From assembly GCA_028712375.1 (NCBI GenBank), contig JAQTQG010000003.1:14619-78618 (forward strand): a stretch of DNA of 64,000 nucleotides, written 5' to 3'. The notes below the pieces were generated by a model that was not told where the DNA came from, did no database searches, and saw nothing but the letters and a program-made list of their open reading frames with translations. Of this stretch, positions 239 through 22,298 are shown one piece after another. The translations under genes and the position numbers were made by a program. Origin of the DNA: Candidatus Omnitrophota bacterium. GTDB taxonomy: Bacteria > Omnitrophota > Gorgyraeia > Gygaellales > Profunditerraquicolaceae. Within the stretch, counting starts at the first letter, position 1, and each line of letters starts with the position of its first letter.

Positions 239-256
239 TTTCCACCCCCTGTCCAT

Positions 257-1509: not shown

Positions 1510-1736
1510 ATGATCGCTAAGACTTATAGTTTTGGCCTGCTGGGCCTGGAGGCTTACCCGGTAGAGATTGAAATTGATGTAGCAAGCGGACTGCCGGCGA
1601 TTAACCTGGTAGGGCTGGCCGATACCGCAATTAAAGAAAGTAAAGAGAGAGTGCGCTCGGCCATTAAAAATTCAGGGTTCCAATGGCCTGCCCAAAGAAT
1701 AACGGTAAACCTGGCCCCTTCCGATATCAAGAAAGA
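1510..1736 (+). pseudogene. comM: comM (Mg-chelatase-like / YifB family AAA+ competence protein), 5' fragment interrupted by island insertion
   Basis: GGAGG SD upstream of ATG 1510. MIAKTYSFGLLGLEAYPVEIEIDV...RITVNLAPSDIKK is colinear with ComM/YifB N-termini. Similarity stops at the att repeat and the frame runs into island DNA to a stop at 1812. Confidence 0.85.
1723..1736. repeat. attL core: GATATCAAGAAAGA, imperfect direct repeat of 20964-20977
   Basis: 13/14 identity with GATATCAAAAAAGA at 20964-20977. Both copies lie in the comM reading frame (codons D-I-K-K). Confidence 0.7.
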
Positions 1737-1774
1737 CGATACCAAAAAACCAGGATTCCCCCCCTACTTTTCCT

Positions 1775-3238
1775 CTAAAAGTTATACTCAATCTCTATCT
1801 TTCCCCCTATAAATACCCTGATAACCTTAATTAAGTCGTTAATCAAATCTCTTTTTTCCTGATCATTAGCCTCAGCCCAGGTAGACTTAAACTCCTTATA
1901 GAATCTACTTTGGCTCTTAAAATCATCCTTTTTTGTTTGTTCTCGCTCAAGTTTAATTCTAGCCTCTAAGATAGAGCATCCTATGCTATCTATTTCTTGT
2001 TTTATCCTCTCCAGCCTACTTAGGACGTCCTCATCATCCGATTTTTCAAGGGCGTTAAGTATCCTTTCTTTTGCCCTTTTTTTACCCTGAAGAGAATCTT
2101 CCTTATTTTTTATCTCTCCTCTAAGTCGGGTAATTTCTATCTGGGAATTTATTTTAAGATGTTTGAATAAATAAGATTCATCTGAAGATAATCCTTCCAC
2201 GTGTTTGAAAATCTCTTCCAGCACCTTATTTTCTAGAAAATCTTTACGATAATTTTTTCTATGCCTACACTTTCCGGGGTTCGTTCTTCTAAGAGAACAG
2301 GCATAATAATACAGATTTCCCCCGATCTTCTTCTGGCTCTTAGTTTGCTTCTGAACTAATTGGTGTCCACACTCACCGCACTGGGCAACATCCCTGATAA
2401 AGAATCCGGGAGCAATAAGTCCAACCTGAGCATGATTCTGGAAGTTCTGTTTTAAAATCTCCTGGGCCTTGGTAAAAACATCTTCACTAATTATCTCTGG
2501 ATGTTTTTTCTCATAGGTTTTTCCCTTTACCATCATCCTGCCTGTATATTTAACATTCTTTAGTATCCGTCTAATCTGCGTGTCTCTTATCAAAAAAGGT
2601 AAAGCGATCTTCTGATTTATCAATTCTTTTACTACTCGCTTATTACTCTTAAACCTGTTATACAGCTCGAAAATTAATCTTACTTTCTCGGCTTCTTCTT
2701 CAACTATAACAAAATGCTTGTTCTCTGATCTATAACCAAATGGAGGATACCCGCCGAAGTTTGTCCCATCCCGAGCAACCTTAATATATCTAGCAGTTAG
2801 GTTACGTTCTCTTATAGTATTTAATTCCATCTCGGCAAAGATCGCAGTTATCTGCATTACAAGTTTCCCCATATCACTAGAGGTATCAAAGGGCTGAGTA
2901 GCTGAAATGAAGACAACTTTGTTCTGCTCAAACTCTTTAAACAAGGTTAGCGTATCAAGAGCAGACCTTGAAATTCTATCAAGACGCCAAACCAATAGGG
3001 CTTTAACCTGGCCTTTGGCGATATCAGCCCTCAGCCTTTGTAATTCAGGCCTTTCGGTGTCGCTACCGCTTAGTTTATCAATATAGAAATCGGAATCTGT
3101 AAGAGGAAGATACCCGTGCAGCTTAGCGCTGTTTAAAATACCTTCCTTCTGCATATCAAGCCCAACCCTATTTACTTCGGCCTGCTCAAGCGTTGAAACT
3201 CGGAGATACGCTTTCGGTTTTATCTGTTCTGTGTTCAT
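1775..3238 (-). CDS. Large serine recombinase (resolvase domain + recombinase domain + Zn ribbon + coiled coil)
   Basis: YLRVSTLEQ (catalytic Ser), VWRLDRISR, GGYPPFGYR, CGECGH...YYYACS...CRHR Zn ribbon, and a K/E-rich coiled-coil tail. The track ORF starts at TTG 3262; ATG 3238 (MNTEQIK) is the more likely start. Confidence 0.95.
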   Translation of the reverse strand: MNTEQIKPKAYLRVSTLEQAEVNRVGLDMQKEGILNSAKLHGYLPLTDSDFYIDKLSGSDTERPELQRLRADIAKGQVKALLVWRLDRISRSALDTLTLFKEFEQNKVVFISATQPFDTSSDMGKLVMQITAIFAEMELNTIRERNLTARYIKVARDGTNFGGYPPFGYRSENKHFVIVEEEAEKVRLIFELYNRFKSNKRVVKELINQKIALPFLIRDTQIRRILKNVKYTGRMMVKGKTYEKKHPEIISEDVFTKAQEILKQNFQNHAQVGLIAPGFFIRDVAQCGECGHQLVQKQTKSQKKIGGNLYYYACSLRRTNPGKCRHRKNYRKDFLENKVLEEIFKHVEGLSSDESYLFKHLKINSQIEITRLRGEIKNKEDSLQGKKRAKERILNALEKSDDEDVLSRLERIKQEIDSIGCSILEARIKLEREQTKKDDFKSQSRFYKEFKSTWAEANDQEKRDLINDLIKVIRVFIGGKIEIEYNF

Positions 3239-3397
3239 TAGTTTTATTTTGCCTTCTTTCAACTATCTTTTTTACTATCTCCCAAAAATGATCTTCGTTT
3301 TCGTTCTTTACTAAATTAGATTTCATTTACTTTTCTCCTTGCTCTATACTTTGTCCTAAACATTGTCTTTTTTACAGTGTAAGATCAAAAAAAATCC

Positions 3398-3913
3398 TTA
3401 CTTGTTCTGGCTGATCAAAGTCACCATCTGTATATTCTCGAAATTCTTTCTACTTTCTATCTCAAGTATTTTATCCGCTTTATCTATCCGGTCATCAATT
3501 TCGTTGCAAATATCCAAATACCGGGTGACATTATCCAAAAGCTGTTGATGATCAGCCTTATGGTCTTCTTTTACAACGCCTAATCGTAGGACCAGATCAG
3601 CATATGACACTTTTCCAGTCGGTATCTCATGACCTTTTAAGACAATAGGAGAATCTATGATCTGTTTTCTTAAATTAAGAAAGTCCTTTATCCTCTTAAG
3701 CGACATCCCTATCATCTTCATAGTAAGGACTTGTTTTATTGTGTCGACTACCTCTCGGCCATATACCCGGTATCTATTCTCCATCTTTTCCGGTGAGAAC
3801 AATCCATAATCCTCGTATTTTCTGAGCTGCTCGCTGGATATATCAAAGCCTTGACGCTGCAACTCTTCGGCTAATTCCGTTCTTAAAAGTCCATCTACTG
3901 GTGATTTATCCAT
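3398..3913 (-). CDS. MerR-type HTH protein (possible regulator or recombination directionality factor)
   Basis: 171 aa. ...QLRKYEDYGLFSPEKMENRYRVYGREVVDTIKQVLTMKMIGMSLKRIKDFL fits the MerR HTH plus dimerisation-helix pattern. It lies immediately upstream of the recombinase. Confidence 0.6.
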   Translation of the reverse strand: MDKSPVDGLLRTELAEELQRQGFDISSEQLRKYEDYGLFSPEKMENRYRVYGREVVDTIKQVLTMKMIGMSLKRIKDFLNLRKQIIDSPIVLKGHEIPTGKVSYADLVLRLGVVKEDHKADHQQLLDNVTRYLDICNEIDDRIDKADKILEIESRKNFENIQMVTLISQNK

Positions 3914-4061
3914 CTGTATCCTTTCCTGACATTAAGACTGTCTTTAAGGCTGTCTTATTATAATCACATCATAGCCTATTTGTCAAGAAATTTCTTTAGT
4001 TATTTTTTGTAGATAAACTGTCTTTTAAAACTCGGCATTTTCTCCGTCTGCGGTAATTAAT

Positions 4062-4370
4062 TTACGTCTTTTTAAGTGGCGTACCATCTGAATCTACCAT
4101 CCTATTTGAAACAATTAGAATTAGATCGATTAACCACCACATGCCAAGACCTCCAAGCGTGCATAATTTCAATATCCCTAACCCTACGTAACCAAGATAG
4201 AATCTATCAAATCCCCAATATCCGAGAAAAAGAGAAAGCAATAACGCCACTAACCAACTTTTACCTTCTTTCTGTAGCCCACTAATTGATCTTCCAGATA
4301 CTGCACAACCGCACTTAACGCAAATAACGGCTTCATTGTCTATCTCTGCACCACATTTTTGACAAAACAT
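4062..4370 (-). CDS. Zn-ribbon + TM2-domain membrane protein
   Basis: N-terminal CQKCG...CVKCG ribbon. C-terminal [27 protein letters not shown]...[10 protein letters not shown] matches the TM2-domain pattern. Confidence 0.75.
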
Positions 4371-4392
4371 TAAAGCCTCCTTTATCTTAAAT

Positions 4393-4764
4393 TTATCTTC
4401 CAGTTATAGAATTAATTATAGTCATAGGATGGACAAACCACAGAATAAGAAGTATTGTGAAAATTGTCCCCATAATTACGCCAAACATAGCCCTACCCAT
4501 TCCGTGTTTTTCAGGGTTTCTCTTAATGTCCCTTATCGCGAGAATACCAAATAGCAAAGCAAACGGAGCTGGAATAAAAAGAATGGAAAAGAAAGCTAAA
4601 TAGCCCGCTGTAATAGCATATCCTGATCTTCCCACTGGCAATAAAGCACGAACAAGGGCATCCTGTCCTGGATCCTTGTTTATTTTTGCTCCTGTAGGAA
4701 CTCCGCACTTCATACAAACAACAGCATCGTCTTTAATTTCTCCACCGCATTTTCTACAAAACAT
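4393..4764 (-). CDS. Zn-ribbon + DUF4190-like membrane protein
   Basis: CRKCG...CMKCG ribbon. Two hydrophobic helices flank [26 protein letters not shown], the DUF4190-like pattern as I recall it. Confidence 0.65.
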
Positions 4765-4835
4765 TTTGCTCCTCCCTTTTATTTCCGAAACCAGGTCTTT
4801 TATTCCTTAGTATTTTAGCTATATGTAGATAGCTC

Positions 4836-5228
4836 TTAATTCTTTCGGACACATTCTGCCTCGACTATATTCCCCCCAGGCATTACTGTGAACATTTTAG
4901 TTCCCGTGGTTCCACAAACAGACGGTGCTGCAATAATCCCATATTCGTTAGGAAATAAATTTACTCCATAGTAGTAGCCATTCACTGTTTTGCTATTGTA
5001 AGCTTCAAAATTAGCGAAATATTGAGTAACCTCATCTCCAGTAGTAGGATATTGCCCCCCGTGGGAAGATGCATAAACCTCAAGCGCTGTAGATATATAC
5101 CTAACCGTTGCTTTTGCAGCAGCTTCATTTTTTGCTATATTATTTCCACAACCCATTACAAAACCCCCAATCAGGACACCCATTAACACAATCCAAACTT
5201 TTCTCATTCTACTCCCTCCTTTTTTCAT
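4836..5228 (-). CDS. Small lipoprotein, function unknown
   Basis: Signal peptide with lipobox (GGFVMGC). The mature part AKATVRYISTALEVYASSHGGQYP resembles pilin-like helices but lacks a prepilin cleavage motif. Confidence 0.55.
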   Translation of the reverse strand: MKKGGSRMRKVWIVLMGVLIGGFVMGCGNNIAKNEAAAKATVRYISTALEVYASSHGGQYPTTGDEVTQYFANFEAYNSKTVNGYYYGVNLFPNEYGIIAAPSVCGTTGTKMFTVMPGGNIVEAECVRKN

Positions 5229-5235
5229 ATATTAT

Positions 5236-5253
5236 CACCTAATTTAATAGGTG
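5236..5253. promoter_or_regulatory. Candidate operator: CACCTA-N6-TAGGTG inverted repeat in a divergent promoter region
   Basis: Perfect 6-bp arms separated by ATTTAA. A further TAGGTG half-site lies at 5277-5282, overlapping the possible GTG start of the XRE gene. Confidence 0.3.
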
Positions 5254-5279
5254 TAAATAGAAAAGACCGACAATAGTAG

Positions 5280-5531
5280 GTGTTCAAAGAGAGGATTTTA
5301 TTGGAAAATGTTAATATGGAAAACATCAATATCAGGTTCGGTAAACATTTGAGGGAATTAAGGAAGGAACGGGAACTGACACAAGAAGAGCTTGCTGAGA
5401 TTTCGGGGCTTGACTATAAATATATCCAACGTCTGGAAGGTAAAAAGCCTTCTTCTCCTACCCTAAATTCATTAGAAAAGATTGCTAAAGCCTTTAATAT
5501 AAGACTCTCAAAATTACTTAAATTTAATTAA
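5280..5531 (+). CDS. XRE-family HTH transcriptional regulator
   Basis: FGKHLRELRKERELTQEELAEISGLDYKYIQRLEGKKPSSPTLNSLEKIAKAFN is a canonical Cro/CI-type HTH. The start is either GTG 5280 or the in-frame ATG 5316. Confidence 0.85.
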   Translation: MFKERILLENVNMENINIRFGKHLRELRKERELTQEELAEISGLDYKYIQRLEGKKPSSPTLNSLEKIAKAFNIRLSKLLKFN

Positions 5532-6193
5532 TACCAACCATCAAGAATACACATTAGAATGCTTAATTCGTTAAGAACGGCCCGAAACTTCTTGTCCTTC
5601 TTGTAGTGCTTGTTATAAGATTCTTCACCTTGGACAACAAGATATTTCTTCTTTTTTGAATCCCAATCGAATTTAATCCTTGTGCCTTCGGCCTTAGTCG
5701 TAACAGTACGGAGTACTCCATCCTTCTTCATTCTCTTAGCATATTCTTCCTCTGGAATGCCGTCTTTACGAGCATGCTTGCCAATAAACTTCTCATGGAT
5801 CTCACGCACATAATCAATCCACTCTTGCTCTTCACTAGGCGGCTTATAACCTTCTGGCAGAATATCACTCATCTTCTTTGCATTACTCACATAACGAGAA
5901 TAAGCCGTAACATCACCAGTGCCGATCCAACGGTCAATGTCACTCTTGCGGAATATGGCTCTACCATCAGCTATACGTGAGAACGGCATCTTTTCCTGAC
6001 GCACCCAACCATCTATAGTCGTTTGTGGCACGCAAAGATATTCTGCTACTTGGACCTTACTTAAATGAATCCTTTTTGTTTTTTTGAATGTTTCGGATTC
6101 TTGGAGGGATTTTTGATCTAAAAACTCACCACAATGACGACACTTAATAGCTTCTTCTTGGATTTCTTCAGCACAAAATGGACATTTCTTCAT
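5528..6193 (-). CDS. Zn-ribbon + excisionase-type (HTH_17-like) DNA-binding protein with an uncharacterised C-terminal domain
   Basis: CPFC...CRHCG ribbon. LSKVQVAEYLCVPQTTIDGWVRQEKMPFSRIADGRAIFRKSDIDRWI fits the excisionase/MerR-like HTH_17 pattern. It starts 5 nt after the upstream gene's stop. Confidence 0.65.
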   Translation of the reverse strand: MKKCPFCAEEIQEEAIKCRHCGEFLDQKSLQESETFKKTKRIHLSKVQVAEYLCVPQTTIDGWVRQEKMPFSRIADGRAIFRKSDIDRWIGTGDVTAYSRYVSNAKKMSDILPEGYKPPSEEQEWIDYVREIHEKFIGKHARKDGIPEEEYAKRMKKDGVLRTVTTKAEGTRIKFDWDSKKKKYLVVQGEESYNKHYKKDKKFRAVLNELSILMCILDGWY

Positions 6194-6198
6194 ATCAA

Positions 6199-7509
6199 TT
6201 ATTTAGCTAAAGTAAGGCTTTTGAGTGAGTTGGCAAAAAATTCACCAATTATAGATTCTTCATAAGAGATGCTCTCACCTTTAGGTAAGATATAGAGATT
6301 CTTGATTTCATTCATAAGAGAACGGTAATTCTGAACATCAATTGAACTAGAATTAAGATTATCTCTATAGGGGTTAAGTGTTTTCATTTTTTCATTAAGA
6401 TCTTCAATTTTAGAGAAAATTTTATTAATTCTGTTAAAAATTACCTGGTTGGTATAAAACACTTCAAGCTTAATCAACTCTGGCCACATAGCATGCTTAT
6501 TTGCAGTATTAAAATCTTTATAATTCAATAATACCCAATGCGAATCTGCGTATAAATAATTATTTACCCCTATAAAAAGTAGCTGATAGTATTCTTTTAA
6601 ATCCCCATCAAGAGCAGCTAGATAATTACGGGTCACCTTTGCCTCGGGATCTGAATTTATCTTCTTTAAAACAATATCGCCTTTTCGACTCAACTCCTCT
6701 TCTTCGGATTTAATGAATTTTCTAACCTTTTCCTTAGAAATTTCAGTTACATTATCCAATAGCCATTTTGCTACTGTGAGCTTAAAATTTCTTAAACCAC
6801 CATATGAAAGATGCTCTAGGCCATCAATATCAGTAAATTTTTCTACTTCAGGCCGTAGTAAAAGACAAACTTTTATTCCTAATCCATGCATTAAACCATA
6901 CTCATAACTAACACTGTTACTTGCAGAAGATATATCTACAATTCCATATTTACAGGTTTTTATTAATTTGCAAACTTTACAAAGAACAGCTTCAGAGGTT
7001 AATTTATCCTTGGCTATGATTGGAATTAAACCAAACTTAGTTAATATTTCTTTTAAAGCTGATTCGCAATCCTCATATTTTTGATAAGGTATATCTAAAA
7101 AAACGTTATTCTCGTTAAATTCCTGTGTAATTTCATTATTCAAATCACAAGCATCCTTTGCTAAAGGCCCACAGGCATTAATAAAGACTTTTTCCGAATC
7201 CACACTTTTTTGTTTAGGCTTTGTAGCATTCTCCTTGCCACTTTCTTTTTCCAATTTTAACTCTTCTATTGCCATCTGAACTTGACTTTTCATTATGTTG
7301 AATGCTGGTTTCAAAGTATAAGAAGAAAGTGGTAAATTAATTTTGTGGGCATTTTGTATAAAATTATAGTAATATTGTTCATTAAATTTCAACAATGGTG
7401 CAACTTTGTTCGACCAATCAATACATGCTTGCTGAGAAGGAAATCCCTTTTCGACTTCCTCTATATTATAAAGATCTTGTAATTTTTTTAAAATTCCACC
7501 GAAATCCAT
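6199..7509 (-). CDS. Hypothetical protein with a central TIR / nucleoside 2-deoxyribosyltransferase-like Rossmannoid core
   Basis: 436 aa. VFLDIPY...ALKEILTKFGLIPIIAKD...CKYGIVDISSASNSVSYEYGLMHGLGIKVCLLL follows the beta-alpha pattern with a conserved Glu after the third strand, as in TIR/NDT-like domains. The flanking N- and C-terminal regions are unrecognised. Confidence 0.5.
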   Translation of the reverse strand: MDFGGILKKLQDLYNIEEVEKGFPSQQACIDWSNKVAPLLKFNEQYYYNFIQNAHKINLPLSSYTLKPAFNIMKSQVQMAIEELKLEKESGKENATKPKQKSVDSEKVFINACGPLAKDACDLNNEITQEFNENNVFLDIPYQKYEDCESALKEILTKFGLIPIIAKDKLTSEAVLCKVCKLIKTCKYGIVDISSASNSVSYEYGLMHGLGIKVCLLLRPEVEKFTDIDGLEHLSYGGLRNFKLTVAKWLLDNVTEISKEKVRKFIKSEEEELSRKGDIVLKKINSDPEAKVTRNYLAALDGDLKEYYQLLFIGVNNYLYADSHWVLLNYKDFNTANKHAMWPELIKLEVFYTNQVIFNRINKIFSKIEDLNEKMKTLNPYRDNLNSSSIDVQNYRSLMNEIKNLYILPKGESISYEESIIGEFFANSLKSLTLAK

Positions 7510-7558
7510 CTTTTAATATTTTTAAATATTTGTGGAGTAACCAGCAAGTAAGTTAACA

Positions 7559-8317
7559 TTACCCTACTTTAACTTCTTTCAGTATTTTCTGGTAAATACA
7601 GAAATCACAATCAGCACTATATTCAGGAACTACGGGACCCACCAAGCATTTATACATCTCAATAATCTTAGCCTCAATCCAAGAATCATTTCCGTCATAA
7701 GGTATTATTTTGATATCGAAATCAAGCTTTGCACTAAAGGTATCCCTGTCAGTAAGCCCATTGCAATACACAAAATAACCGGTTGGAGATACATTAAAAC
7801 CGTTTTTTCTGAATAACCACTGGTATATTTCCATCTGCCTCTTATAAGATATCTGCCAATCAGCATCTATGCTTACTTCTTCTTCCTTTGATGTGCTCTT
7901 GTAATCTACGATAAATAGCTGGCCATCCGATGAGGCCCAAACGTCATCTATCCCCCCTGTAAGTAAAAGATTTGTCGGTATGTGCAGATATTCAATACCA
8001 CCATGAAGAGCATCCCGCCAGATATTCAGCTTATCGTGCTTAAAAGGAACCGCCTTGATCCCATTTGCTTCCATAAGAGGATGGCTTATCTGTTTATTCC
8101 GATAGACATCGAATTCTTTCTTCAGTAACTTGTCTACTGCTGAATTTAGTGTAAAAGGGAACCCGGGTGGTTGCCCTACGCCTAATCTTCTGTCTAAATA
8201 GAAGCAACGTGGGCAATTTATGAATAGTTCAATTTTGGAGCGGCTTAGTTTAAATGGAATTTTACTATGCGGATCGAATAAATTCTTAGTTTTTCTACCA
8301 GTATAGTATTTAGACAT
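7559..8317 (-). CDS. PD-(D/E)XK nuclease, Cas4/RecB-like, with four terminal Cys
   Basis: GGIDDVW...LFIVDYKST (D...D-x-K), QMEIYQWLF (QxxxY), CPRC near the N-terminus and CDFC near the C-terminus (possible Fe-S or metal site). Confidence 0.8.
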   Translation of the reverse strand: MSKYYTGRKTKNLFDPHSKIPFKLSRSKIELFINCPRCFYLDRRLGVGQPPGFPFTLNSAVDKLLKKEFDVYRNKQISHPLMEANGIKAVPFKHDKLNIWRDALHGGIEYLHIPTNLLLTGGIDDVWASSDGQLFIVDYKSTSKEEEVSIDADWQISYKRQMEIYQWLFRKNGFNVSPTGYFVYCNGLTDRDTFSAKLDFDIKIIPYDGNDSWIEAKIIEMYKCLVGPVVPEYSADCDFCIYQKILKEVKVG

Positions 8318-10351: not shown

Positions 10352-10533
10352 GGTGTTATTATACCTCTTTTTATTACCCCTAACAATAATTTCAAGTTTT
10401 TCACTGAGAGCTTATCTGCATGCCTCAAGCCACAATCATACCTTAGAAACCGATAAAACTTCATAATCTGCTTAGTTTCTTCTATTAACTTCCTATGCCT
10501 TATGTTCCATAGCCGAGTAATCGGACTGATCAT
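10348..10533 (-). CDS. 61-aa basic micro-protein, translationally coupled to the OLD gene
   Basis: AGGAGG SD 8 nt upstream of ATG 10533 (MISPITRLWNIRHRK...). Its TGA overlaps the OLD ATG as ATGA. No recognisable domain. Confidence 0.45.
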   Translation of the reverse strand: MISPITRLWNIRHRKLIEETKQIMKFYRFLRYDCGLRHADKLSVKNLKLLLGVIKRGIITP

Positions 10534-10708
10534 CTTTACCACCTCCTGCTATCAATAGACGCAGAAAGTGGAAAAATCTAACAGGATTTTTAGAATTTAA
10601 CTTCGTTTTTTACTTAATTTTGGGCAGGATTTATATATGGAATTTCTCTATGAACTTCGCTTTTGGTATAAATTACGAAGCTATATTATTGAAACCTGAA
10701 ATTTGCTT

Positions 10709-13117: not shown

Positions 13118-13139
13118 ATTTTTAACAAAGGAAAACACA

Positions 13140-13988
13140 ATGAAGTTTGCCGATGTAAATAAGACCATAATAAAGCTGTGCAAAGATAACAGTTTGGATT
13201 TCTTAGCTGAATGCGAAGCTATCCAATCTGAAGTTGATGCCTGCTCTCTACCTGAAATTCTCGACCATTTAGATAATGCAGGTATCATACCCGAATGTTT
13301 TGATCACGATTCTACGGAAGAAAAGTTGTTCGCAAAGTATTGTGACTCTTTATTAGCTCGTGGGTTACGAGAAATAGGATTAAACGCATATACAATACCA
13401 GAACGCAGTGATGCGGCTGATGTTCAAGGGAAGGGTAGCAATTACACTATTGTTGGAGATGCTAAAGCGTTTCGTCTTAGCAGAACAGCAAAAAACCAAA
13501 AAGATTTTAAGGTCGAGGCTCTTGATAAATGGAGAAATGGATCCGATTTCGCTGTATTAGTAAGCCCTCTTTACCAGTACCCAAATACAAATAGCCAGAT
13601 TTACTCACAAGCAATAAGGTATAATGTTACCCTATTATCTTATACCCACCTAGCTTTCCTAATAAGAAATAGAAATAATATAAAGAATGGCTCTCTTAGG
13701 GGATTATGGGAAATCGGAAAAAAGCTCTCTATTGGTAAAAGCGCCAAATCATACTGGGGATTAATTGACGCTAAAATGCTAGAAATTACCGGGAAGGATA
13801 AAAAGGATTGGGATAGCGCTATAGAAACAGAATACAAATGCTTAGTTCAGAGAGCTAAGGACGAGATTAAGTATTGGGAAGATGAAAAAGCAAAGATATT
13901 AAAATTGTCTCACGATGCGGCAATACAAGAACTAATTAAGGCTAGGAAAATAACAGAAAAGGTCGGAGTTATTAAGCAGTTTATATAG
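13140..13988 (+). CDS. Putative type II restriction endonuclease (PD-DxK)
   Basis: 282 aa, convergent with and 7 nt from the methyltransferase stop. AADVQGKGSNYTIVGDAKAF fits D...(D/E)xK. The specific family was not recognised. Confidence 0.55.
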   Translation: MKFADVNKTIIKLCKDNSLDFLAECEAIQSEVDACSLPEILDHLDNAGIIPECFDHDSTEEKLFAKYCDSLLARGLREIGLNAYTIPERSDAADVQGKGSNYTIVGDAKAFRLSRTAKNQKDFKVEALDKWRNGSDFAVLVSPLYQYPNTNSQIYSQAIRYNVTLLSYTHLAFLIRNRNNIKNGSLRGLWEIGKKLSIGKSAKSYWGLIDAKMLEITGKDKKDWDSAIETEYKCLVQRAKDEIKYWEDEKAKILKLSHDAAIQELIKARKITEKVGVIKQFI

Positions 13989-13995
13989 CGTTGAT

Positions 13996-16200
13996 TTAAA
14001 GAGATTTTCTTTTTGTGATTTTGAAGCCTGAATAGAGTGTTGAGATGTAGTCTGAAATACTCATAATCATATCTGCATCACATCCACCCCCAGTGATGTT
14101 CTTATAGTTGACCAGTAACCCAATTCCCTGTGCGAATATTGCCAACCCAATGTCTTTCTCGCTCCATCCCGCTTCTTTCAACACATTACCATAATCAGAT
14201 ACGTAAGAAGATACCTTAGCAATTATTTCGGGGAAAGATATTGATGATTTCTCTTCCATTGTTTTATGACAGACGAAGGTAATGCAAGTATCTATTGCTT
14301 CTGATGTCATGCCGCGAGGTCTTGCTTTTCTTTCTATACTAAGTGGTTGCACGCTTGTGATTATAAAATTAGTGTCTCTAAACGCCCGAATAATTGCGTC
14401 CCATCCGCCTAGTGAGCTATGGCTATAAATAAACGATAGGACGCCGTCATATTTCAAAACTCTCTCAGCTTCTTTTATCGCCTTGCCTAATTCTAAGCAA
14501 TACTTATCGTGAGCTTCAAGGGCCGATTGACTACGAAATGCTGAAGCAACTAATTCGGAACCAAAGCTAGTGTCTTGTTTGTTAAATAAATCCGGATCAA
14601 CATTTTTTAATAAAATTCTTTTCCACGCATAAAAGAAATCCGCTAATATGCTGTAATAAATATTATCATAGTATGGGGGATCTGTTATAATTGCATCAAA
14701 ATAATTGCTCTTAAATGGGAGGTTTTGGGCAATTCCACAGTTTACTTCCGGTTTATATGGAAATTTTTCGATGGAGCTAATGCCTGAAATGATACGGTCG
14801 AGCTTATCCCAAAGATTAGCTGGGCCATTCATTATGGGGTCTATTTCGCCATAATCCCAAAGCATGGGAACGCCTGGACCGCAAAAAGCTCGCCCCATCT
14901 GTTCATTTTGCGAAATCCACATAGATAAACGACAATTCCAATCCACAAGTTGATCAATTAAACTCGCCAATACAGAAATAGCAAAATCCGCCAACTCCTT
15001 TGAATTCTGCTCCTTCAATAACCGATATTCATCTTTCAGACACTTTATCAAAGACAGTAGAACCACCCTCTGCCTTTTATTGACAAAATCACTATGAGTT
15101 TCTATGCCGTAAACTGAGGGGTTCACAATGCCGGACCATTTGGGCAATTTCGTATTTGGAAGACTGCTTTCTAAAGATTTTAATAAATCATTTTCAAGAT
15201 GAGAGATCTTAACGGCTGAGGGAATCAGCAAATCGTTGTTTTCTATAAGCAAAAACTCTTTCCCGGATTTTTCTTTCCGCTTAACAAAAGCAATTAGCTC
15301 ATCTCGAGTGTTGCTAATATCAACTTTTTCAACTATATGAGAGCATTTTGGGCATTTAGCAGACCCATTTCGACCTTCCCAATTTGAGTTATGTTCATAT
15401 TTGTCATCCACTTCCTTAATCCCAATATGCTGTCGATCCTTGGAATTATTTATAATAATTGCTATTCGCTTATTTTTCTTGCGTGACAGCCAGGGTCTTT
15501 TTATTAAATAATATACATATTTACATTTTGGGCATTTTAATGAATACGTCCAGAAATACACTACAGGTGGTCTTTGTTTCGTCTCGGATATCTCACCCTG
15601 CTTACTTCTTGATACCCCTCCCTTCCTCAATGGAAACAATTCATTTGTTGCTTCTTCTAAAGACTTTAAAACACGAATGCCAGATTTCCTTACAATATCT
15701 TCGGCACTTCTTAAATCAACTTTCTGCGAGTATTCAAGATTTGCTTTTTGTATAAAAACAGACAATTCATTCGCATCAATAGAGTATGCTTTGGCACCTA
15801 TGTTGGCTATTTCTAATGGTATTGTTCCTCCACCACCAAACATATCTAGGGCCTTTGGAGGAACTACGTATTGTTCTTTAATAATAGCTCGGGCTTTATC
15901 TATGGCACTTTTGTTTGCATCCCCCGCTAACTCAACCATTATTTCATACATTTTAGGTGTACTTATTTTACATAGAGAAGCAAACGCAAGTATCCTCATA
16001 GCAGAATGAGGTCTTCGAGCCCACCAAACGTGGAGTGTATGCGACGTTTCTCCACTTCGGTATCGTTCCGCAAGACCAGCTATTGAGGCTTCGTAATGTA
16101 AAAGTCCACTATCTATCAAACGATGTTCCGAAGTGTTTGGGATCAGAGCAATTTCAGGACTTGATTGGGTTTTATTTTGACACATACTACTTATTGGCAT
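13996..16200 (-). CDS. DUF1156-type DNA methyltransferase (DPPY, N6-A/N4-C class) with an internal Zn ribbon
   Basis: LHVWWARRPHSAMR (DUF1156 signature as recalled), DMFGGGGTIPLE (SAM motif I), ITDPPYYDNIYY (motif IV), and CPKC...CPKC ribbon in the middle. Confidence 0.9.
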   Translation of the reverse strand: MPISSMCQNKTQSSPEIALIPNTSEHRLIDSGLLHYEASIAGLAERYRSGETSHTLHVWWARRPHSAMRILAFASLCKISTPKMYEIMVELAGDANKSAIDKARAIIKEQYVVPPKALDMFGGGGTIPLEIANIGAKAYSIDANELSVFIQKANLEYSQKVDLRSAEDIVRKSGIRVLKSLEEATNELFPLRKGGVSRSKQGEISETKQRPPVVYFWTYSLKCPKCKYVYYLIKRPWLSRKKNKRIAIIINNSKDRQHIGIKEVDDKYEHNSNWEGRNGSAKCPKCSHIVEKVDISNTRDELIAFVKRKEKSGKEFLLIENNDLLIPSAVKISHLENDLLKSLESSLPNTKLPKWSGIVNPSVYGIETHSDFVNKRQRVVLLSLIKCLKDEYRLLKEQNSKELADFAISVLASLIDQLVDWNCRLSMWISQNEQMGRAFCGPGVPMLWDYGEIDPIMNGPANLWDKLDRIISGISSIEKFPYKPEVNCGIAQNLPFKSNYFDAIITDPPYYDNIYYSILADFFYAWKRILLKNVDPDLFNKQDTSFGSELVASAFRSQSALEAHDKYCLELGKAIKEAERVLKYDGVLSFIYSHSSLGGWDAIIRAFRDTNFIITSVQPLSIERKARPRGMTSEAIDTCITFVCHKTMEEKSSISFPEIIAKVSSYVSDYGNVLKEAGWSEKDIGLAIFAQGIGLLVNYKNITGGGCDADMIMSISDYISTLYSGFKITKRKSL

Positions 16201-16463
16201 TTTACAGATAGGCCTTTGCCACGACTTATTTCAAGCACATAGCATTTTTCATTAAGGGGGATCTTACGGGTATATCGCCAACCAAATGAAATACGTCTAT
16301 ATTTCCAATCGATTCTTTTTTTACCTAAATCTTGTCCTTCAAAATTAACCAAAATTTCATCAGCATCATTTAACAACTTTTTAATATCTGGATCTCGCTT
16401 TTGTTTCCATATTATGTATCCCCATTTCCTAGCACGGTTCAAAATTGGTATAGTAAAGGCCAT
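16191..16463 (-). CDS. 90-aa basic protein translationally coupled to the methyltransferase
   Basis: AAGGAGGT SD. Its stop overlaps the MTase start by 10 nt. K/R/W-rich (RIDWKYRRISFGWRYTRK), possibly a small DNA-binding barrel. No firm family assignment. Confidence 0.5.
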   Translation of the reverse strand: MAFTIPILNRARKWGYIIWKQKRDPDIKKLLNDADEILVNFEGQDLGKKRIDWKYRRISFGWRYTRKIPLNEKCYVLEISRGKGLSVKCQ

Positions 16464-16519
16464 TGTCTACCTCCTTTTTATTTAGTCTATTGTAAAACGA
16501 TGGAAGAGTCAAGCTTGGT

Positions 16520-17104
16520 TTAAACACTAAGTAGCTCGGCACACTCCGCCAGATCTTCCTTCGTTACGCCCGTGTAGATCTGCGTCGTAGAAACGAACTT
16601 GTGTCCCAAAAACTCCTGCACCTTCCGGATGTTGCCACACTTTCGCATTAACTCCGTCCCAACCGTGTGCCTCAGACAGTGTGGTGAATATCTTCCTTCC
16701 AAGCCACTTTCACTAACCCATTTATTAAGGTTTAACTGCACTGCCCTCTGGGTAATTCTTTTGTTGTTCCTTGATAAAAATAAGGGTTCGCTCAAGGAGA
16801 AGCCTTCATCCTTTGCCTTTCTCTGCCTAATGTATTTATCTATGTGGGCTCTAATATCCTTGTTTAATGGTATTTGCCTAATCCTGTCGCCCTTGCCTTT
16901 TATCTCCAACACTTCCTTTGACGAATAGCCGTTGTGCACATCCTTGGCATTAAGGTTGATCGTTTCACTAAGGCGTAATCCAGTATTAAGCATAAGGTCA
17001 AACATACAATAATCACGCCAGGCTTTCCTGCTGTCGGCAAGTGTCTTTAAGAATTGTTTCTTTTGTTCAGAAGTCAGATATCTTATCGTGTTCCTCTTGG
17101 CCAT
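16520..17104 (-). CDS. Short tyrosine recombinase (Xer/phage-integrase catalytic domain only)
   Basis: NTGLRLSE, HCLRHTVGTEL, LGHKFVSTTQIYTGV (R..HxxR..Y). The likely start is ATG 17104 (GAGGTG SD); the track ORF extends to 17134. Confidence 0.9.
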   Translation of the reverse strand: MAKRNTIRYLTSEQKKQFLKTLADSRKAWRDYCMFDLMLNTGLRLSETINLNAKDVHNGYSSKEVLEIKGKGDRIRQIPLNKDIRAHIDKYIRQRKAKDEGFSLSEPLFLSRNNKRITQRAVQLNLNKWVSESGLEGRYSPHCLRHTVGTELMRKCGNIRKVQEFLGHKFVSTTQIYTGVTKEDLAECAELLSV

Positions 17105-17105
17105 T

Positions 17106-17528
17106 TCACACCTCTTCGTTAATATACTGCTCAACCTTAACCCTTACCTTTTCTTTTAATACCTGAAACTCTTCTGAGAACTCGCCATTATCACTAAAAT
17201 CTCTGTCTTTCCATAAATTGTCATACGCCTGGCAGAGAAAATATTGGTATTCTTTATTTTGCGGGGACATCTCAATAGCCTTAAGGATAATTTCAGTGCC
17301 TGTCCTTAAAGAAGTAACCCAGAAAGTTGTAAGCAGAATATATGATTGTTCGTAAAGAAGCTCTGCTCTCTGTTCTTTTGAGAGGCCGTAATTCTGCAAT
17401 AATTTATAGACCCTATCAAGCCTCTCAGATTTTTGTGTATCTCCATCAGGTTCTTGAGCAAAGAGATTAACTAAAAATAATAACGACATCGAAACTATTA
17501 AAATAACTATTATCTGTTTTGTATTCAT
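17106..17528 (-). CDS. Small secreted helical protein
   Basis: GGAGGTG SD upstream of ATG 17528. Signal-like MNTKQIIVILIVSMSLLFLVNLFAQ. No enzymatic motif. Confidence 0.5.
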   Translation of the reverse strand: MNTKQIIVILIVSMSLLFLVNLFAQEPDGDTQKSERLDRVYKLLQNYGLSKEQRAELLYEQSYILLTTFWVTSLRTGTEIILKAIEMSPQNKEYQYFLCQAYDNLWKDRDFSDNGEFSEEFQVLKEKVRVKVEQYINEEV

Positions 17529-17576
17529 TTTCACCTCCAATATCTTTTTTCCTATATATGGCCTGACCCTGGCTTC

Positions 17577-18971
17577 CTATGAATTAGCAAAAAAACCTAT
17601 CTTGGTTTTATTGTCCTTAACAAAGATTCCGTCCTGTTCTAGACTCGCTCCAAACAAAAGGTCATTCATTGTAATAATATTCCTTTTCTCTTGAACCAGC
17701 CGTCGCAGGGCGTGGAAGACAGCATTCTTGATGTAGCCACCACTAAACTGAAATTGTCTGGCCAGAACAGCAAAATCAACACCTTGGGCAAGAGTTACCT
17801 TGCTTGGAATATGCGATCGCCAAATTTCTTTGCGTATCTTCTCATCAGGCAAATCAAATTTAACCTTTAAAGTAACTCTGCGTTCAAGTGCAGGATCAAG
17901 CAAATTATCCATGTTCGAAGTTAAGATTACCACTCCTTCAAACCGTTCAATTTCCTGTAGCATAATATTAACAAACCTAATATCGTGTTCTTGGGCTGCG
18001 AAGTTGCGGTTATATAAAATAGAATCCGCCTCGTCAATACAGATAACAACATTATTTTGCTTTGCTGACTTAAAAATAGAAGATATTTGTTTATCGGTTT
18101 CACCAAACCAACGTGAATTTATTTTGGGAAATTCAACAACAAGCAACTTCTTCTTAAGATGTTTTGCTATTGCCTCAGATAACATCGATTTTCCCGTGCC
18201 GGGCGGACCGTAAAAGAGGAAAACCAATCCTTTGCCATTTTTAATTGTTTCTTCTACACCAAGATCTTCAAGTCCTTTATCCTGCAACCCGGATAATAAG
18301 AAACTGACGTTTTTCTTCACATCGAGAGATAGCTTAACATCTTCAAGAGAATATGCCGGATCCTTTAAAAAACCAACCTCTTCGCAAGGGTGTAAATCTT
18401 TTTTATTTTCTGCCCTTCCAGGTCTAGATTCTTTATACTCCCCACTTATCATCCTAGAAAAAACGTCCAACAAAGACGAACTCATCCCGAAACTGACTAC
18501 GGCCGAGTTGTGGTTGTTTCGATAATATGGGTACAAAATAGAATATTTTAAAAGATTGGCATTTCGGTTAAAATAACGAGACAACCCCATTCTCCCGATT
18601 ACAGAATCATTTAAGTCAAAGATCCTAAGGAGCAGATCCCTTGAACAGATATTCTCTTTTAGGTGCAAGAACTCCAAATAAAGGTAATATAGGAGTATTT
18701 GCTTTTCAAAGATATCCAAACCGTATAGCGAGGCAGTTTTTTCTAACGCAAACTTACTGCCCTTAGACATGGAATCCTGTACCCTTTGCCAAAACAAAAC
18801 TTCTTTTGTCTTTATTGTTGAGTCCAATTCTGATACATTCTTGCGGAATGCCTCTACATCATCCTTAGATTTCTTAATAAGAATAATTCTTTTGTTTTGG
18901 TAAAGTTCGCAGATCTTGAAATATTCTTCGATGTATTCTTGGTCACCTGAAAGAAAATTATTTTCCGGCAT
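17577..18971 (-). CDS. Classical-clade AAA+ ATPase with an uncharacterised N-terminal domain
   Basis: FLFYGPPGTGKSMLSEAIA (Walker A), VICIDEADS (Walker B), LTSNMDNLLDPALERRV (second region of homology). AAGGAG SD upstream of ATG 18971; the track ORF is over-extended to 19037. Confidence 0.9.
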   Translation of the reverse strand: MPENNFLSGDQEYIEEYFKICELYQNKRIILIKKSKDDVEAFRKNVSELDSTIKTKEVLFWQRVQDSMSKGSKFALEKTASLYGLDIFEKQILLYYLYLEFLHLKENICSRDLLLRIFDLNDSVIGRMGLSRYFNRNANLLKYSILYPYYRNNHNSAVVSFGMSSSLLDVFSRMISGEYKESRPGRAENKKDLHPCEEVGFLKDPAYSLEDVKLSLDVKKNVSFLLSGLQDKGLEDLGVEETIKNGKGLVFLFYGPPGTGKSMLSEAIAKHLKKKLLVVEFPKINSRWFGETDKQISSIFKSAKQNNVVICIDEADSILYNRNFAAQEHDIRFVNIMLQEIERFEGVVILTSNMDNLLDPALERRVTLKVKFDLPDEKIRKEIWRSHIPSKVTLAQGVDFAVLARQFQFSGGYIKNAVFHALRRLVQEKRNIITMNDLLFGASLEQDGIFVKDNKTKIGFFANS

Positions 18972-19617
18972 TACCTTTTCTCCTTTCTTTCTGCACAAAC
19001 TTATCAAAATCCTCAACTGTCTTTTTGAGCCTTTCATTCATCTGATCATTCATTAACTTTGTTAAGGCTATCGCTTTTTCATATTTCTTGCCATACCAAA
19101 TAAGTTTCTTCGTAGGTTTACCTTTGTAACACCACCGCTTAAAACTCGCCGCTTGCTTTATCAGTTCAGGCACATTGATTACGCCAAATTTCTTATAAAT
19201 ACCGCTTAATCTAGAACTCTCATAAGCAAGATCAAAACAGTTTCGACATCCAAAATAATTGCCGACCCTGTAAAGTACCCCTACCCGCCTATCACAGCCT
19301 AAGATTGACAAAGGACACTTAAACCAATATCTGACACCGCCGTAATTACAAGAAGTTGCGACTAAATCGACCCTGTATTCGAAATTCTGATATTCTCCAT
19401 TAGGCTGAAGAATAGAGTAATAGAAATCTAAGAATGGATCATTCTTGTTTATAAACGATACTACAATATGGATACCGTTTTTAAAGACTTCCCCATTATA
19501 AGGAATATCAATAATCCCAAAATCACTGGCTTCTAAAAAATCATTAAGTTTTAGTGATAATATTGGAATCTTGTAAAGGTTATCTGCCACCAACTTGGGG
19601 CTTTTATCTCTGTCCAT
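18958..19617 (-). CDS. Zn-ribbon protein, function unknown, overlapping the AAA+ gene by 14 nt
   Basis: GAGGTG SD upstream of ATG 19617. CNYGGVRYWFKCP...CDRRVGVLY...FGCRNCFDLAYESSR is a 4-5 Cys cluster. Confidence 0.55.
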   Translation of the reverse strand: MDRDKSPKLVADNLYKIPILSLKLNDFLEASDFGIIDIPYNGEVFKNGIHIVVSFINKNDPFLDFYYSILQPNGEYQNFEYRVDLVATSCNYGGVRYWFKCPLSILGCDRRVGVLYRVGNYFGCRNCFDLAYESSRLSGIYKKFGVINVPELIKQAASFKRWCYKGKPTKKLIWYGKKYEKAIALTKLMNDQMNERLKKTVEDFDKFVQKERRKGNAGK

Positions 19618-19738
19618 TGTAAAACACCTCAAAAAAATGCCGAAATGAATAAGAATTCTTTGATTTCAATCTTAAATTGGTTGACCAATTTTGCCTTTTA
19701 TATAAACCAAAAATAACACGCAGAAATAATCAACTTTA

Positions 19739-20098
19739 TTACCATTCAATAATAATCTTCTTATCTAACATCTGCACTTTTCCGATAGCCTCCATTTTGA
19801 TTAGGCGTTTTCCCTTGTTTTCTGACACCTGGTTGAGTGATCTATCTTTTGACATAGCAAAACACCTTTTTGACTCATTCCCCTCGGAAAATCGTGTTGA
19901 GTTGGTCAAAACGCCTTCCAGAATTGACCTGACATATACTCTGCTAGGACCAATTCCTTTTCTAGCAGGATTGTGCCCCATTCTGAATGGGAACAAATAA
20001 CAACCCGTCGTGTTATCACAGAAGCGAACATCTTTAGGCCTACCTGCACAAATAAGACAGTGTTTTCGGATGGCTTGTAACGGCGTAAGGTGTTTCAT
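19739..20098 (-). CDS. Small Cys-rich protein (LQAIRKHCLICAG...RFCDNTTGCYLFPFR)
   Basis: AGGGGG SD. Cys cluster near the N-terminus. Preferred over the antisense ORF 19677-20000, which has no SD or motif. Confidence 0.5.
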   Translation of the reverse strand: MKHLTPLQAIRKHCLICAGRPKDVRFCDNTTGCYLFPFRMGHNPARKGIGPSRVYVRSILEGVLTNSTRFSEGNESKRCFAMSKDRSLNQVSENKGKRLIKMEAIGKVQMLDKKIIIEW

Positions 20099-20299
20099 TT
20101 ATAACCCCCTTTCGTGCCCACTCTTCTGGCCTACGACCGGAATCAACTTTACTGAGAGTAGTTCAAATTCACTTAAGTTGTCTCCTCTGTCGTTTTTCAA
20201 TATTACTTTGGCTGTTGAGGAACTCCGCCGAAGGCGGATAAATGTATAACTACTCTTTTGTACAATACTCTTCTGTAAAGTATTCTATTGTGTCCCCCT

Positions 20300-20390
20300 A
20301 CTTAGGGGGTAGCGAATAACCTATATAGGAGACAGTAAATAACCCACTTAGGGGGTAGCAATAACCCATATAGGGGTAGCAAATAGTATA
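20300..20390. repeat. Iteron-like direct repeats (putative origin)
   Basis: ACTTAGGGGGTAGCGAATAACCTATATAGG (20300-20329) and ACTTAGGGGGTAGCAATAACCCATATAGG (20346-20374), plus a third GGGGTAGC core at 20373-20380. They lie directly 3' of the Rep-like gene. Confidence 0.6.
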
Positions 20391-20402
20391 ACTAAATCCA
20401 TA

Positions 20403-20831
20403 TTAACTTGGCTTCACCCATATCATCCTGCCCTCTATGTACGGGTAATCTTTGCCGTTCTTCACTTCAGATCCCTCCTTAATATCTATACGAATCTTCC
20501 AGCTTTTCCGCTTGCCTTTGGTTACTGTTATCACCCACTTTCCAGCGTCCTGCTCAATCCCAATTTTTCTTCCATCCCGGGTTATCATTTTTTTCTCCAA
20601 TAGCTTTTTCTTTGTTCTAGGTACGTGAGATAATGGTATACCAGTGCTATTTTCGATTTGGCTGTTGGAAATCCAGTCCAAATCCTTTTGGTACCCTAAG
20701 GTCTTCATAACAATAAACCACCACAAGGCGTGCTCGTACGGACTAAGGTAACGAGCAATCCAAACATAACCCATTCTCAACAAACGCCAAGGCAGTTTTA
20801 TGAAACGTACATTATCTTTTAGATCTGCCAT
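20403..20831 (-). CDS. Replication protein O (N-terminal wHTH)-like initiator
   Basis: ...LSPYEHALWWFIVMKTLGYQKDLDWISNSQIENSTGIPLSHVPRTKKKLLEKKMI... follows the Phage_rep_O N-terminal pattern. AAGGAG SD. Confidence 0.65.
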   Translation of the reverse strand: MADLKDNVRFIKLPWRLLRMGYVWIARYLSPYEHALWWFIVMKTLGYQKDLDWISNSQIENSTGIPLSHVPRTKKKLLEKKMITRDGRKIGIEQDAGKWVITVTKGKRKSWKIRIDIKEGSEVKNGKDYPYIEGRMIWVKPS

Positions 20832-20954
20832 TTATTCAGCTCCTTTCCTGGTCATTTCCCCAAGGGAAAATACCACTTTTCTTTCTTTTTTATTGGTAAT
20901 TTTTAATTGCTATAACTTTAAGATAATTAAAGAGATGAGATATATCCTTGCGGA

Positions 20955-22298
20955 ATGCACTCTGATATCAAAAAAGAGGGCGCTTGTTTTGATTTAGCCA
21001 TTGCCCTGGGCATTCTGGCGGCAACCGGGCAGATCGGCAAAGAGCGCCTTCAAAACTACTCTTTTCTGGGAGAATTATCCCTAGACGGCCAATTGCGGCC
21101 GGTGCATGGCGTTCTGGCGATAAGTTTAACTATCTCTAAATTCCCGGTTAAGAGCCTTGTTCTTCCCGAAAAGAACGCTCAGGAAGCAGCGGTTATACAA
21201 GAAATTTCTGCCTGGCCGCTCAAAAACTTAAAAGAAGTGGTGCAATTTTTAGCTGATCCCGGAAGCCGAAGCCCATTTAAATTAGATATTAACCACGTTT
21301 TTAAAGGCGGTGGGAATTATACTTTGGATTTCTCCGAAGTTAAAGGCCAATATTTTGCAAAAAGAGCGCTGGAAGTGGCGGTATCCGGGGGGCACAATAT
21401 TATTATGCTCGGTCCGCCCGGCAGCGGGAAAACTATGTTAGCTAAAAGGATTCCCACTATTATGCCTAACCTTTCCTTAGAAGAAGCTCTGGAAATCACC
21501 AAAATCCATTCCGTAGCCGGGACGCTATTAAATGATAATTTTATCAGAACCCGGCCCTTTCGCTGCCCGCATCACAGTATTTCAGATACCGCCTTAATCG
21601 GAGGAGGCAGCGTGCCTAAACCCGGAGAGATCAGCCTGTCTCATTACGGCGTGCTCTTTCTGGATGAACTCCCGGAATTTAACCGCAAGGCCCTGGAAGC
21701 ATTAAGACAGCCGCTGGAAGACAACCTGATTTGTATCAGCCGCGTAAAAAGAACCCTGGTATTCCCGGCTTGTTTTATTTTAGCCGCCGCGCTTAACCCT
21801 TGTCCGTGCGGCAATTATTTTAACCCGCACAAACCATGCCATTGCAACCCGACAAAAATCAAAAATTACCTGGGGAAAATTTCCGGGCCGCTGCTGGATA
21901 GAATCGACCTGCACATTGAAGTCCCGCAGGTAAAACACCGGGAATTATCAGACGCGCGGGAAGCAGAATCATCGGCAGCCATCCGGCAACGCGTAGAAAA
22001 CGCCCGCGCAATTCAACAAAAAAGATTCTCCGCCATAGGCAAATCCGGCTCCACAAGCATATTTTGTAACGCCCAAATGACCAATAGGCTCATTAAAGAA
22101 TATTGTGTTTTAGATGCCGAGGCTAGTAACTTATTAAATATGGCAATAACCGAATTGGCCCTATCGGCAAGGGCTTATGATAAAATACTTAAGGTGAGCC
22201 GGACGATTAGTGACCTGGCAGGCAGCCAAAACATTAAATCCGAACATGTTGCCGAGGCAATTCAATACCGCTCTTTAGACCGGCAGCTCTCCGGATAA
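20955..22298 (+). pseudogene. comM: comM 3' fragment (rest of the N-terminal domain, AAA+ module and C-terminal domain)
   Basis: SDIKKEGACFDLAIALGILAATGQ..., GPPGSGKTMLAKRI (Walker A), VLFLDELPEF (Walker B), CPCG...C.C Zn motif, and a C-terminal Mg-chelatase-like domain. The ATG at 20955 is supplied by island DNA. Confidence 0.9.
20964..20977. repeat. attR core: GATATCAAAAAAGA
   Basis: Direct repeat of 1723-1736 (13/14), in the comM frame. Confidence 0.7.

Follow-up and report, generated by a model that had tools for sequence, protein, structure and literature searches.

What has divided the comM gene of this Candidatus Omnitrophota bacterium, which enzyme put the dividing DNA there, and could the gene be made whole again? 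In the window, by which we mean the whole 64,000-nt stretch of contig JAQTQG010000003.1 that was analysed, comM is interrupted at codon 75/76: its N-terminal fragment lies at 1510-1734 and its C-terminal fragment begins at 20960, with an island of 19,241 bp between them. The initial annotation had described comM as split by a ~19.2-kb island with imperfect 14-bp direct repeats at its borders. This observation was confirmed, and the repeat proved to be longer, at 17 nt. The island is very probably an integrative element whose own large serine recombinase (LSR) placed it in comM, at an attachment site (attB) in codons 71-76. The features that carry this reading are as follows.

1510-1734, plus strand: comM N-terminal fragment, codons 1-75 (translation, tblastn and colinearity with intact ComM)
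1720-1736, unstranded: attL shared segment TCCGATATCAAGAAAGA, which includes the 14-mer 1723-1736, with the probable crossover dinucleotide AA at 1729-1730 (five relatives' attL compared with four empty attB)
1731-1774, unstranded: element-side att arm (P'), GAAAGACGATACCAAAAAACCAGGATT..., conserved in L006, L003 and L001 by junction alignments
1775-3262, minus strand: LSR (Pfam Resolvase, Recombinase and Zn_ribbon_recom)
20961-20977, unstranded: attR shared segment TCTGATATCAAAAAAGA, which includes the 14-mer 20964-20977, with the probable crossover dinucleotide AA at 20970-20971
20960-22298, plus strand: comM C-terminal fragment, codons 71-515, comprising part of the N-terminal domain and the AAA+ module (translation; P0001 is 100% identical)

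The two halves of comM form one intact reading frame

Two open reading frames (ORFs) on the plus strand contain the comM fragments, a 100-aa ORF at 1510-1812 and a 447-aa ORF at 20955-22298. Translation bore out what had been proposed for both. The first follows ComM through K75 (...NLAPSDIKK) and then runs through unrelated element sequence to a stop at 1812; the second begins MH-SDIKKEGACFDLAIALGIL and resumes comM. The 14-mer occurs as GATATCAAGAAAGA at 1723-1736 and as GATATCAAAAAAGA at 20964-20977, exactly where it had been placed. Allowing at most one mismatch, it had exactly two matches in the 64-kb window compared with 0.03 expected, both of them at the break points, and none of 100 shuffled sequences gave two or more. 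The full direct repeat, which includes the 14-mer, spans 1720-1736 and 20961-20977 and is identical at 15 of 17 positions. The island differs from the rest of the window in GC content (0.365 versus 0.427).

The initial annotation had also predicted that removal of the island would rebuild an ORF of about 515 aa colinear with ComM. When the deletion was made in silico, a 515-aa ORF was recovered regardless of the cut point chosen inside the repeat. This ORF has the ChlI, Mg_chelatase and Mg_chelatase_C domains of Pfam, each near full model length, and is a colinear, full-length ComM/YifB protein: it aligns with P0002, an intact homologue of 515 aa, at 85% identity and without a gap where the halves join, is gap-free over residues 56-95 in an alignment of 120 sequences, and matches the solved ComM structure 8rxd over residues 5-507 (E = 2.2e-130). 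Neither fragment contains stop codons or frameshifts. The residues around the break (68-79) have a mean column conservation of 0.92 compared with 0.84 overall, and are not among the most conserved stretches of ComM.

The junctions do not depend on a single assembly. In an independent assembly of SRR22315508 (Logan), contigs were identical to window positions 1-7844 and 10485-21437, so both junctions were recovered at 100% identity. In addition, the C-terminal fragment (P0001) and the LSR are each 100% identical to proteins from a Candidatus Omnitrophica metagenome-assembled genome.

The break falls within the N-terminal Lon/ChlI-like domain (Pfam ChlI, residues 20-142), and the split ComM has likely lost its function. 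At 20955, two codons before S71 of comM, the element arm of attR contributes an ATG that is in frame, and gene callers therefore annotate a 447-aa 'YifB' protein; the public entry for a 'YifB family ATPase' of this length represents only part of a gene. Judged by eye, this ATG has a poor ribosome-binding context, and a promoter and terminator scan around attR found nothing, including no sigma-70-like promoter upstream of 20955.

Related Omnitrophota carry uninterrupted comM at the same locus

The search for empty attB sites in related genomes, suggested by the initial annotation, was successful. Four related Omnitrophota contigs (L217, L219, L220 and L221) have an uninterrupted comM (ComM 83-85% identical). 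In all four, the upstream genes are those of the window (a coiled-coil protein, DUF212 and LysM/YkuD), and the downstream tetratricopeptide repeat gene is also common to the window and L219. When the four loci were aligned with the window by blastn, each alignment stopped at 1736 and resumed at 20960 or 20961, and the 17-18 nt by which the two parts overlapped is the repeat. These comM genes are empty attB sites of related, not conspecific, species.

One further candidate for a split comM, the 463-aa P0091, was rejected: it directly follows the syntenic upstream genes and probably has a miscalled start. In L220, a Y1 transposase gene (IS200/IS605-type, 3100-3576) is inserted immediately downstream of the uninterrupted comM; the neighbourhood of comM therefore draws other mobile DNA too.

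The LSR belongs to a small family found beside comM

An LSR gene had been noted 40 bp inside attL, and its end was found 38 bp from the left repeat. The ORF has 495 aa from a TTG start; translation more likely begins at the ATG at 3238, for a protein of 487 aa (P0121). Its Resolvase domain was clear (Pfam, E = 6.5e-32) and matched the catalytic domains of the TP901-1 integrase and gamma-delta resolvase. The motif YLRVSTLEQ, with serine S23, and the residues D95, R96 and R99 (DR..R) were invariant in a nine-sequence alignment of the family. The C-terminal part contains the Pfam domains Recombinase (188-273) and Zn_ribbon_recom (294-351), in which C295, C298, C322 and C332 are likewise invariant. 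The protein therefore has the catalytic serine with its arginine and aspartate residues, the recombinase domain and the zinc ribbon by which LSRs are recognised. XisF was its best NCBIfam match, far below the family cut-off.

The family is small. Its members are 42-80% identical to the window LSR, proteins outside it are at most 35% identical, and no integrase in the collection of deposited phages that we searched exceeded 30%. The same arrangement, an LSR gene next to an N-terminal comM fragment, was found in five further independent contigs, and the break is always at ComM residue 75/76. The comM-adjacent relatives range from close to distant (L006, 79% identity to the window LSR; L001 and L007, 79%; L003, L004 and L008, 70%; L086, 48%; L005 and L087, 42%). 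Host synteny around their LSR-comM junctions was the same wherever the contig was long enough. No other evidence speaks as strongly as this recurrent linkage for the LSR as the integrase, rather than the tyrosine recombinase encoded inside the island, and for comM codons 71-76 as attB. More distant LSRs (at most 35% identity), from Clostridia, Candidate Phyla Radiation bacteria and gut phages, had no comM within the 10-kb flanks retrieved, and the association is therefore shown only for the Omnitrophota LSR family.

A small gene with a resolvase domain (166-192 aa) lies just upstream of the LSR gene in three relatives (L001, 9108-9608; L003, 2291-2863; L005, 9013-9591). Where these related prophages carry it, the window island has a MerR-like gene.

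Strand exchange most likely occurs in codon 74

Junction comparisons showed where host sequence gives way to element sequence. The P' arm, AAGAAAGA[C/G]GATACC[A/G]AAAA.CA.GGATT, is conserved in four elements (window, L006, L003 and L001), even in L001, where a gene for a 301-aa protein sits between the arm and the LSR gene. In contrast, the host-side codons 71-73 differ among the four loci (TCC GAT ATC, TCC GAT ATT, TCA GAC CTA and TCG GAT ATC). The element-derived part therefore begins after codon 73. Codon 74 (K74) reads AAG in all five attL of the closer relatives, and AAA in the window attR and three of the four empty sites, i.e. in four of five host-derived copies (one-sided Fisher test; P = 0.024, or P = 0.067 with the distant L005 counted). 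This contrast suggests that the G of the AAG codon comes from the element.

Taken with the sequence comparison above, the most likely place of strand exchange would be the AA of codon 74 (1729-1730 / 20970-20971). The junctions fit an exchange at this AA within a 17-bp similarity between attB and attP, which share 15 of 17 bases (TCyGATATCAArAAAGA). In the model (slash, point of exchange), attB would read ...CCT TCC GAT ATC AA/A AAA GAG GGC... and attP would read ...GCAC TCT GAT ATC AA/G AAA GAC GAT ACC.... The attB junction was reconstructed by joining window positions 1671-1730 (...CCTTCCGATATCAA) to 20972-21031 (AAAAGAGGGCGC...), and the attP junction by joining 20912-20971 (...GCACTCTGATATCAA) to 1731-1790 (GAAAGACGATACC...).

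Rfam and tRNA scans of window positions 1-24000 found nothing, so the integration site is not of the tRNA type. Searches for further att sites in IMG/VR gave little. The attP query GATATYAAGAAAGASGATACC had a sole match, in L218, a contig without LSR or comM, which we take as a chance match, and the degenerate attR pattern ATGCAYTCNGAYATHAARAARGARGG had none. A phage contig (L009/L166) with an LSR 49% identical to that of the island, and no comM, was considered as a source of attP; it has only a weak ...ACATCAATAAG... resemblance and was unconvincing.

In the mechanism that we propose, the LSR would recombine the attP of the element with attB in comM codons 71-76, inserting approximately 1731-20971. 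The products of the exchange would be attL, made of the host left arm and the element P' arm, and attR, made of the element P arm and the host right arm. The element would belong to an Omnitrophota element lineage, prophages included, that uses related LSRs and the same comM site. In the integrated state, ComM is split in its N-terminal domain and presumably inactive. Recombination of attL with attR, by the LSR and a recombination directionality factor (RDF, an excision cofactor), would restore the 515-aa gene exactly. Integration by LSR-mediated recombination of attP with attB is well supported; that exchange occurs at exactly this position, that the element is mobile today, that ComM function is lost and that the element replicates after excision is what we infer. 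The predicted reversibility, i.e. excision that would restore comM, belongs with these.

The island carries predicted defence genes and a possible replication module

The protein scans of the island covered 24 ORFs of at least 60 aa. Besides the LSR, the following features were recognised.

3398-3913, minus strand: MerR-family helix-turn-helix (HTH) regulator, beside the LSR gene (Pfam MerR_1)
4062-4370 and 4393-4764, minus strand: two small zinc-ribbon membrane proteins (Pfam TM2 and DUF4190)
5528-6193, minus strand: zinc-ribbon and HTH_17 protein with an excisionase-like DNA-binding domain (Pfam HTH_17; PHROG 66, 'excisionase and transcriptional regulator')
7559-8317, minus strand: PD-(D/E)XK / Cas4-like nuclease, immediately downstream of the OLD gene (Pfam PDDEXK_1; PADLOC Cas4 models)
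8462-10351, minus strand: OLD-family ATPase-TOPRIM nuclease, a predicted anti-phage defence protein (Pfam AAA_15 and OLD-like_TOPRIM; PADLOC 'Old', E = 2.8e-88)
10709-12220, minus strand: 503-aa protein with an N-terminal HNH motif and no family match in the remainder (weak Pfam HNH; PHROG HNH families)
13140-13988, plus strand: HindIII-family type II restriction endonuclease (Pfam RE_HindIII, E = 1.3e-84; PADLOC REase_II, 3.8e-67)
13996-16200, minus strand: DUF1156-type DNA methyltransferase, the presumed partner of the HindIII-like enzyme (PADLOC MTase_II PDLC03233, E = 4.3e-197, full length)
16520-17134, minus strand: Xer/FimB-like tyrosine recombinase of 204 aa in mid-island (Pfam Phage_integrase; NCBIfam XerC/XerD and tyrosine-type invertase models, all below cut-off)
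17577-19037, minus strand: AAA+ ATPase similar to IetA/IteA (PADLOC IetA, E = 6e-35; NCBIfam IteA, below cut-off)
20303-20385, unstranded: iteron-like tandem repeat, 3.7 copies of a 22-23 nt unit, TAGGGGGTAGCAAATAACCCATA (Tandem Repeats Finder)
20403-20831, minus strand: lambda-O-like replication initiator, N-terminal domain only, next to attR (Pfam Phage_rep_O, E = 1.5e-14; PHROG 'replication initiation O-like')

A defence cargo is predicted from the matches to curated models and from the adjacent restriction enzyme and methyltransferase genes. Flanking the OLD/PD-(D/E)XK pair are the 503-aa HNH protein and, at 6199-7509, a 436-aa protein with weak PDC-S35 matches only; both are possibly defence components that await characterisation. 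For the IetA-like ATPase, no partner resembling the IetS protease was found. Its downstream neighbour (17106-17540) encodes a protein of 144 aa that is hydrophobic over an N-terminal stretch and matches no family, and the two could indicate a variant two-gene system. The TM2/DUF4190 membrane proteins are paralogous at their N-termini, in the zinc ribbon, where a 63-nt direct repeat (D1) is 75% identical. The HTH_17 protein is a candidate regulator or excision cofactor, which is a guess from its domain. The iteron-like array follows immediately after the stop codon of the lambda-O-like gene and is a candidate replication origin.

Between the arms of a 27-nt inverted repeat (14251-14277 / 16482-16508, 81% complementary), near the tyrosine recombinase gene, lie a 90-aa ORF and the 5' part of the methyltransferase gene. 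By a rough estimate, chance alone should produce a few pairs of this kind, and inversion would inactivate the methyltransferase beside an active restriction enzyme. The pair is probably a chance one, and a phase-variation switch is improbable.

To define what kind of element this is, we looked for hallmark genes. PHROG and Pfam detected no virion or packaging genes (terminase, portal, capsid or tail) among the 24 ORFs, so the island is not recognisable as an intact prophage. Pfam matches to relaxase, type IV secretion or coupling proteins, as expected of a conjugative or mobilisable element, were absent from the island ORFs, as were the transposase or TnsA/B/C-type domains of an AbaR-type element, and the left 8 kb of the island had no blastn match to plasmids. 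With regard to phage satellites, an integrase is present, as is a lambda-O-like initiator accompanied by iteron-like repeats; genes for a small terminase, for capsid redirection or for a primase were not detected in the island, in which many ORFs have no family assignment. Phage genes do occur in three related elements, the comM-adjacent L001 and L005 and the IMG/VR phage contig L009, which has no comM. A small terminase and a DnaG-like zinc ribbon are encoded in L001, a large terminase in L009, and an internal virion protein in both L005 and L009. Given these phage-bearing relatives and its own gene content, the description that suits the island best is that of an integrative defence island related to phages, possibly with a replication module. 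A reduced prophage and a satellite-like element are both conceivable identities.

Alternative explanations

Several observations weigh against LSR-driven integration at this site, or against a mobile and reversible form of it. A second recombinase, of the tyrosine type, sits inside the island. No RDF was recognised from the island sequence; LSR excision requires such a factor, and RDFs share no common sequence signature. No excised circle (attP) was found, as both assemblies show the integrated form only, and no conspecific empty attB was seen, the nearest uninterrupted comM being only 85% identical at the protein level. No relative's attR was recovered with which the other element arm could be compared, and a search with the lambda-O-like protein to reach other attR junctions found only itself in the database. 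Over the sequence available, the island has only the LSR in common with its relatives. Finally, dyad symmetry in the reconstructed attB and attP was at chance level, with a best score of 11/24 equal to the shuffle mean; the attP optimum falls on the proposed AA and is not significant.

The absence of the excised form from both assemblies and the lack of a recognised RDF would be explained if the island were a fixed, immobile remnant of a decayed prophage or satellite, inserted by the LSR in the past and no longer excised, with comM a pseudogene of the lineage. A cargo wholly unlike that of the relatives, and 19.2 kb in which no virion, packaging or conjugation genes were detected, also speak for decay. 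However, the LSR ORF is full length and keeps every family-invariant residue; the comM fragments, free of stops and frameshifts, jointly encode 515 aa that are 85% identical to intact homologues; and the att segments agree at 15 of 17 positions, the other two being explicable as original differences between attB and attP. A remnant is possible, and we consider it unlikely.

We give little credence to a more specific proposal, that the island is a satellite-like, defence-loaded replicon which shares an LSR/attP module with comM-integrating temperate phages of Omnitrophota, and which may also act as a reversible comM switch. We know of no description of either transformation or satellites in Omnitrophota.

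Still less probable is a regulated switch of the active-lysogeny or developmental type known from the Listeria comK prophage, Bacillus subtilis skin and SPbeta and Anabaena XisF: excision under defined conditions would turn comM on, and the element may re-integrate. The in-frame, exactly restorable split is what such a switch needs, the LSR has XisF as its best NCBIfam match (though far below cut-off), and the comM site is conserved across divergent LSRs. That conservation would follow equally well from selection for a conserved attB or from elements that disable transformation (PMC4774983), and no differentiation programme is known in Omnitrophota.

Insertion by another agent (the internal tyrosine recombinase, a transposase with target-site duplication or an assembly chimera) is very improbable: for it there are the recombinase gene at 16520-17134 and a direct repeat superficially like a target-site duplication, but that recombinase is at least 3.8 kb away from both ends of the island, has no N-terminal domain for DNA binding and is not shared by the comM-adjacent relatives, the 24 scanned ORFs contain no transposase domains, the LSR-comM junction was found again in five other contigs, two assemblers concur on the junctions, and the two mismatches in the 17-nt repeat follow host versus element origin.

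Relation to known systems

Integration of the island by its LSR has close precedents. In a survey of LSRs, Mg-chelatase/ATP-dependent protease homologues were the most enriched target, accounting for 12.4% of predicted site-specific LSRs, and competence genes were generally enriched as targets (PMC10083194). The elements of that survey (Durrant et al. 2022) resemble the island in that an LSR sits at the edge, that they insert site-specifically into the coding sequence of a ComM/YifB homologue, and that divergent LSRs converge on one conserved site; the likeness in target is at the level of the gene. In contrast, the host phylum here is Omnitrophota, known only from metagenome-assembled genomes, and the LSR is divergent. 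The literature that we searched contained no paper linking Omnitrophota with comM insertions. Since LSR targeting of Mg-chelatase/ComM and disruption of comM are already established, the conceptual addition is small. Novelty is confined to the host phylum, to a divergent lineage of LSRs whose conserved site is precise to the codon, and to a defence cargo that replaces the phage genome. The locus thus provides a well-delimited LSR example from an uncultivated phylum, with attL and attR and a predicted attB and attP, and extends the habit of mobile elements to sit in comM to Omnitrophota, where a small, divergent LSR lineage (42-100% identity) uses a single codon-level site. The LSR and its att sites could join integrase toolkits.

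Splitting of a gene in frame by a serine integrase is also seen with Listeria A118/phi10403S in comK and, in Bacillus subtilis, with SPbeta (SprA, spsM) and skin (SpoIVCA, sigK). Excision of these elements rebuilds the split gene exactly, and the att sites of SPbeta likewise share a longish core. The target genes of these systems are others, and excision, RDFs and physiological triggers have been demonstrated for them, whereas the island is known from sequence alone.

Like P4-like satellites and phage-inducible chromosomal islands, the island combines an integrase, a replication initiator with iterons, regulators and an anti-phage block with the lack of virion genes, and its integrase is shared with co-occurring temperate phages. 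It differs in that no capsid-size redirection, small terminase or primase-helicase was detected; the likeness is one of gene content.

That mobile elements repeatedly target comM, as the initial annotation had stated, is documented for many Gram-negative bacteria (PMC4774983, PMC12378983, PMC11441513). The AbaR islands in comM of Acinetobacter baumannii and the comM elements of Pasteurellaceae, Pseudomonas and Francisella have in common with the island the target gene and a load of accessory genes (PMC11441513, PMC4774983). For both AbaR and the integrase-borne comM elements, impaired transformation is presumed, as it is here. AbaR islands move by Tn7-like transposition. Therefore, the AbaR example given earlier stands for the target and not for the mechanism: the window island has no Tn7-like transposition genes, was inserted by an LSR and carries defence rather than resistance cargo. 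The comM elements of Croucher et al. have an integrase similar to CF65_00446.

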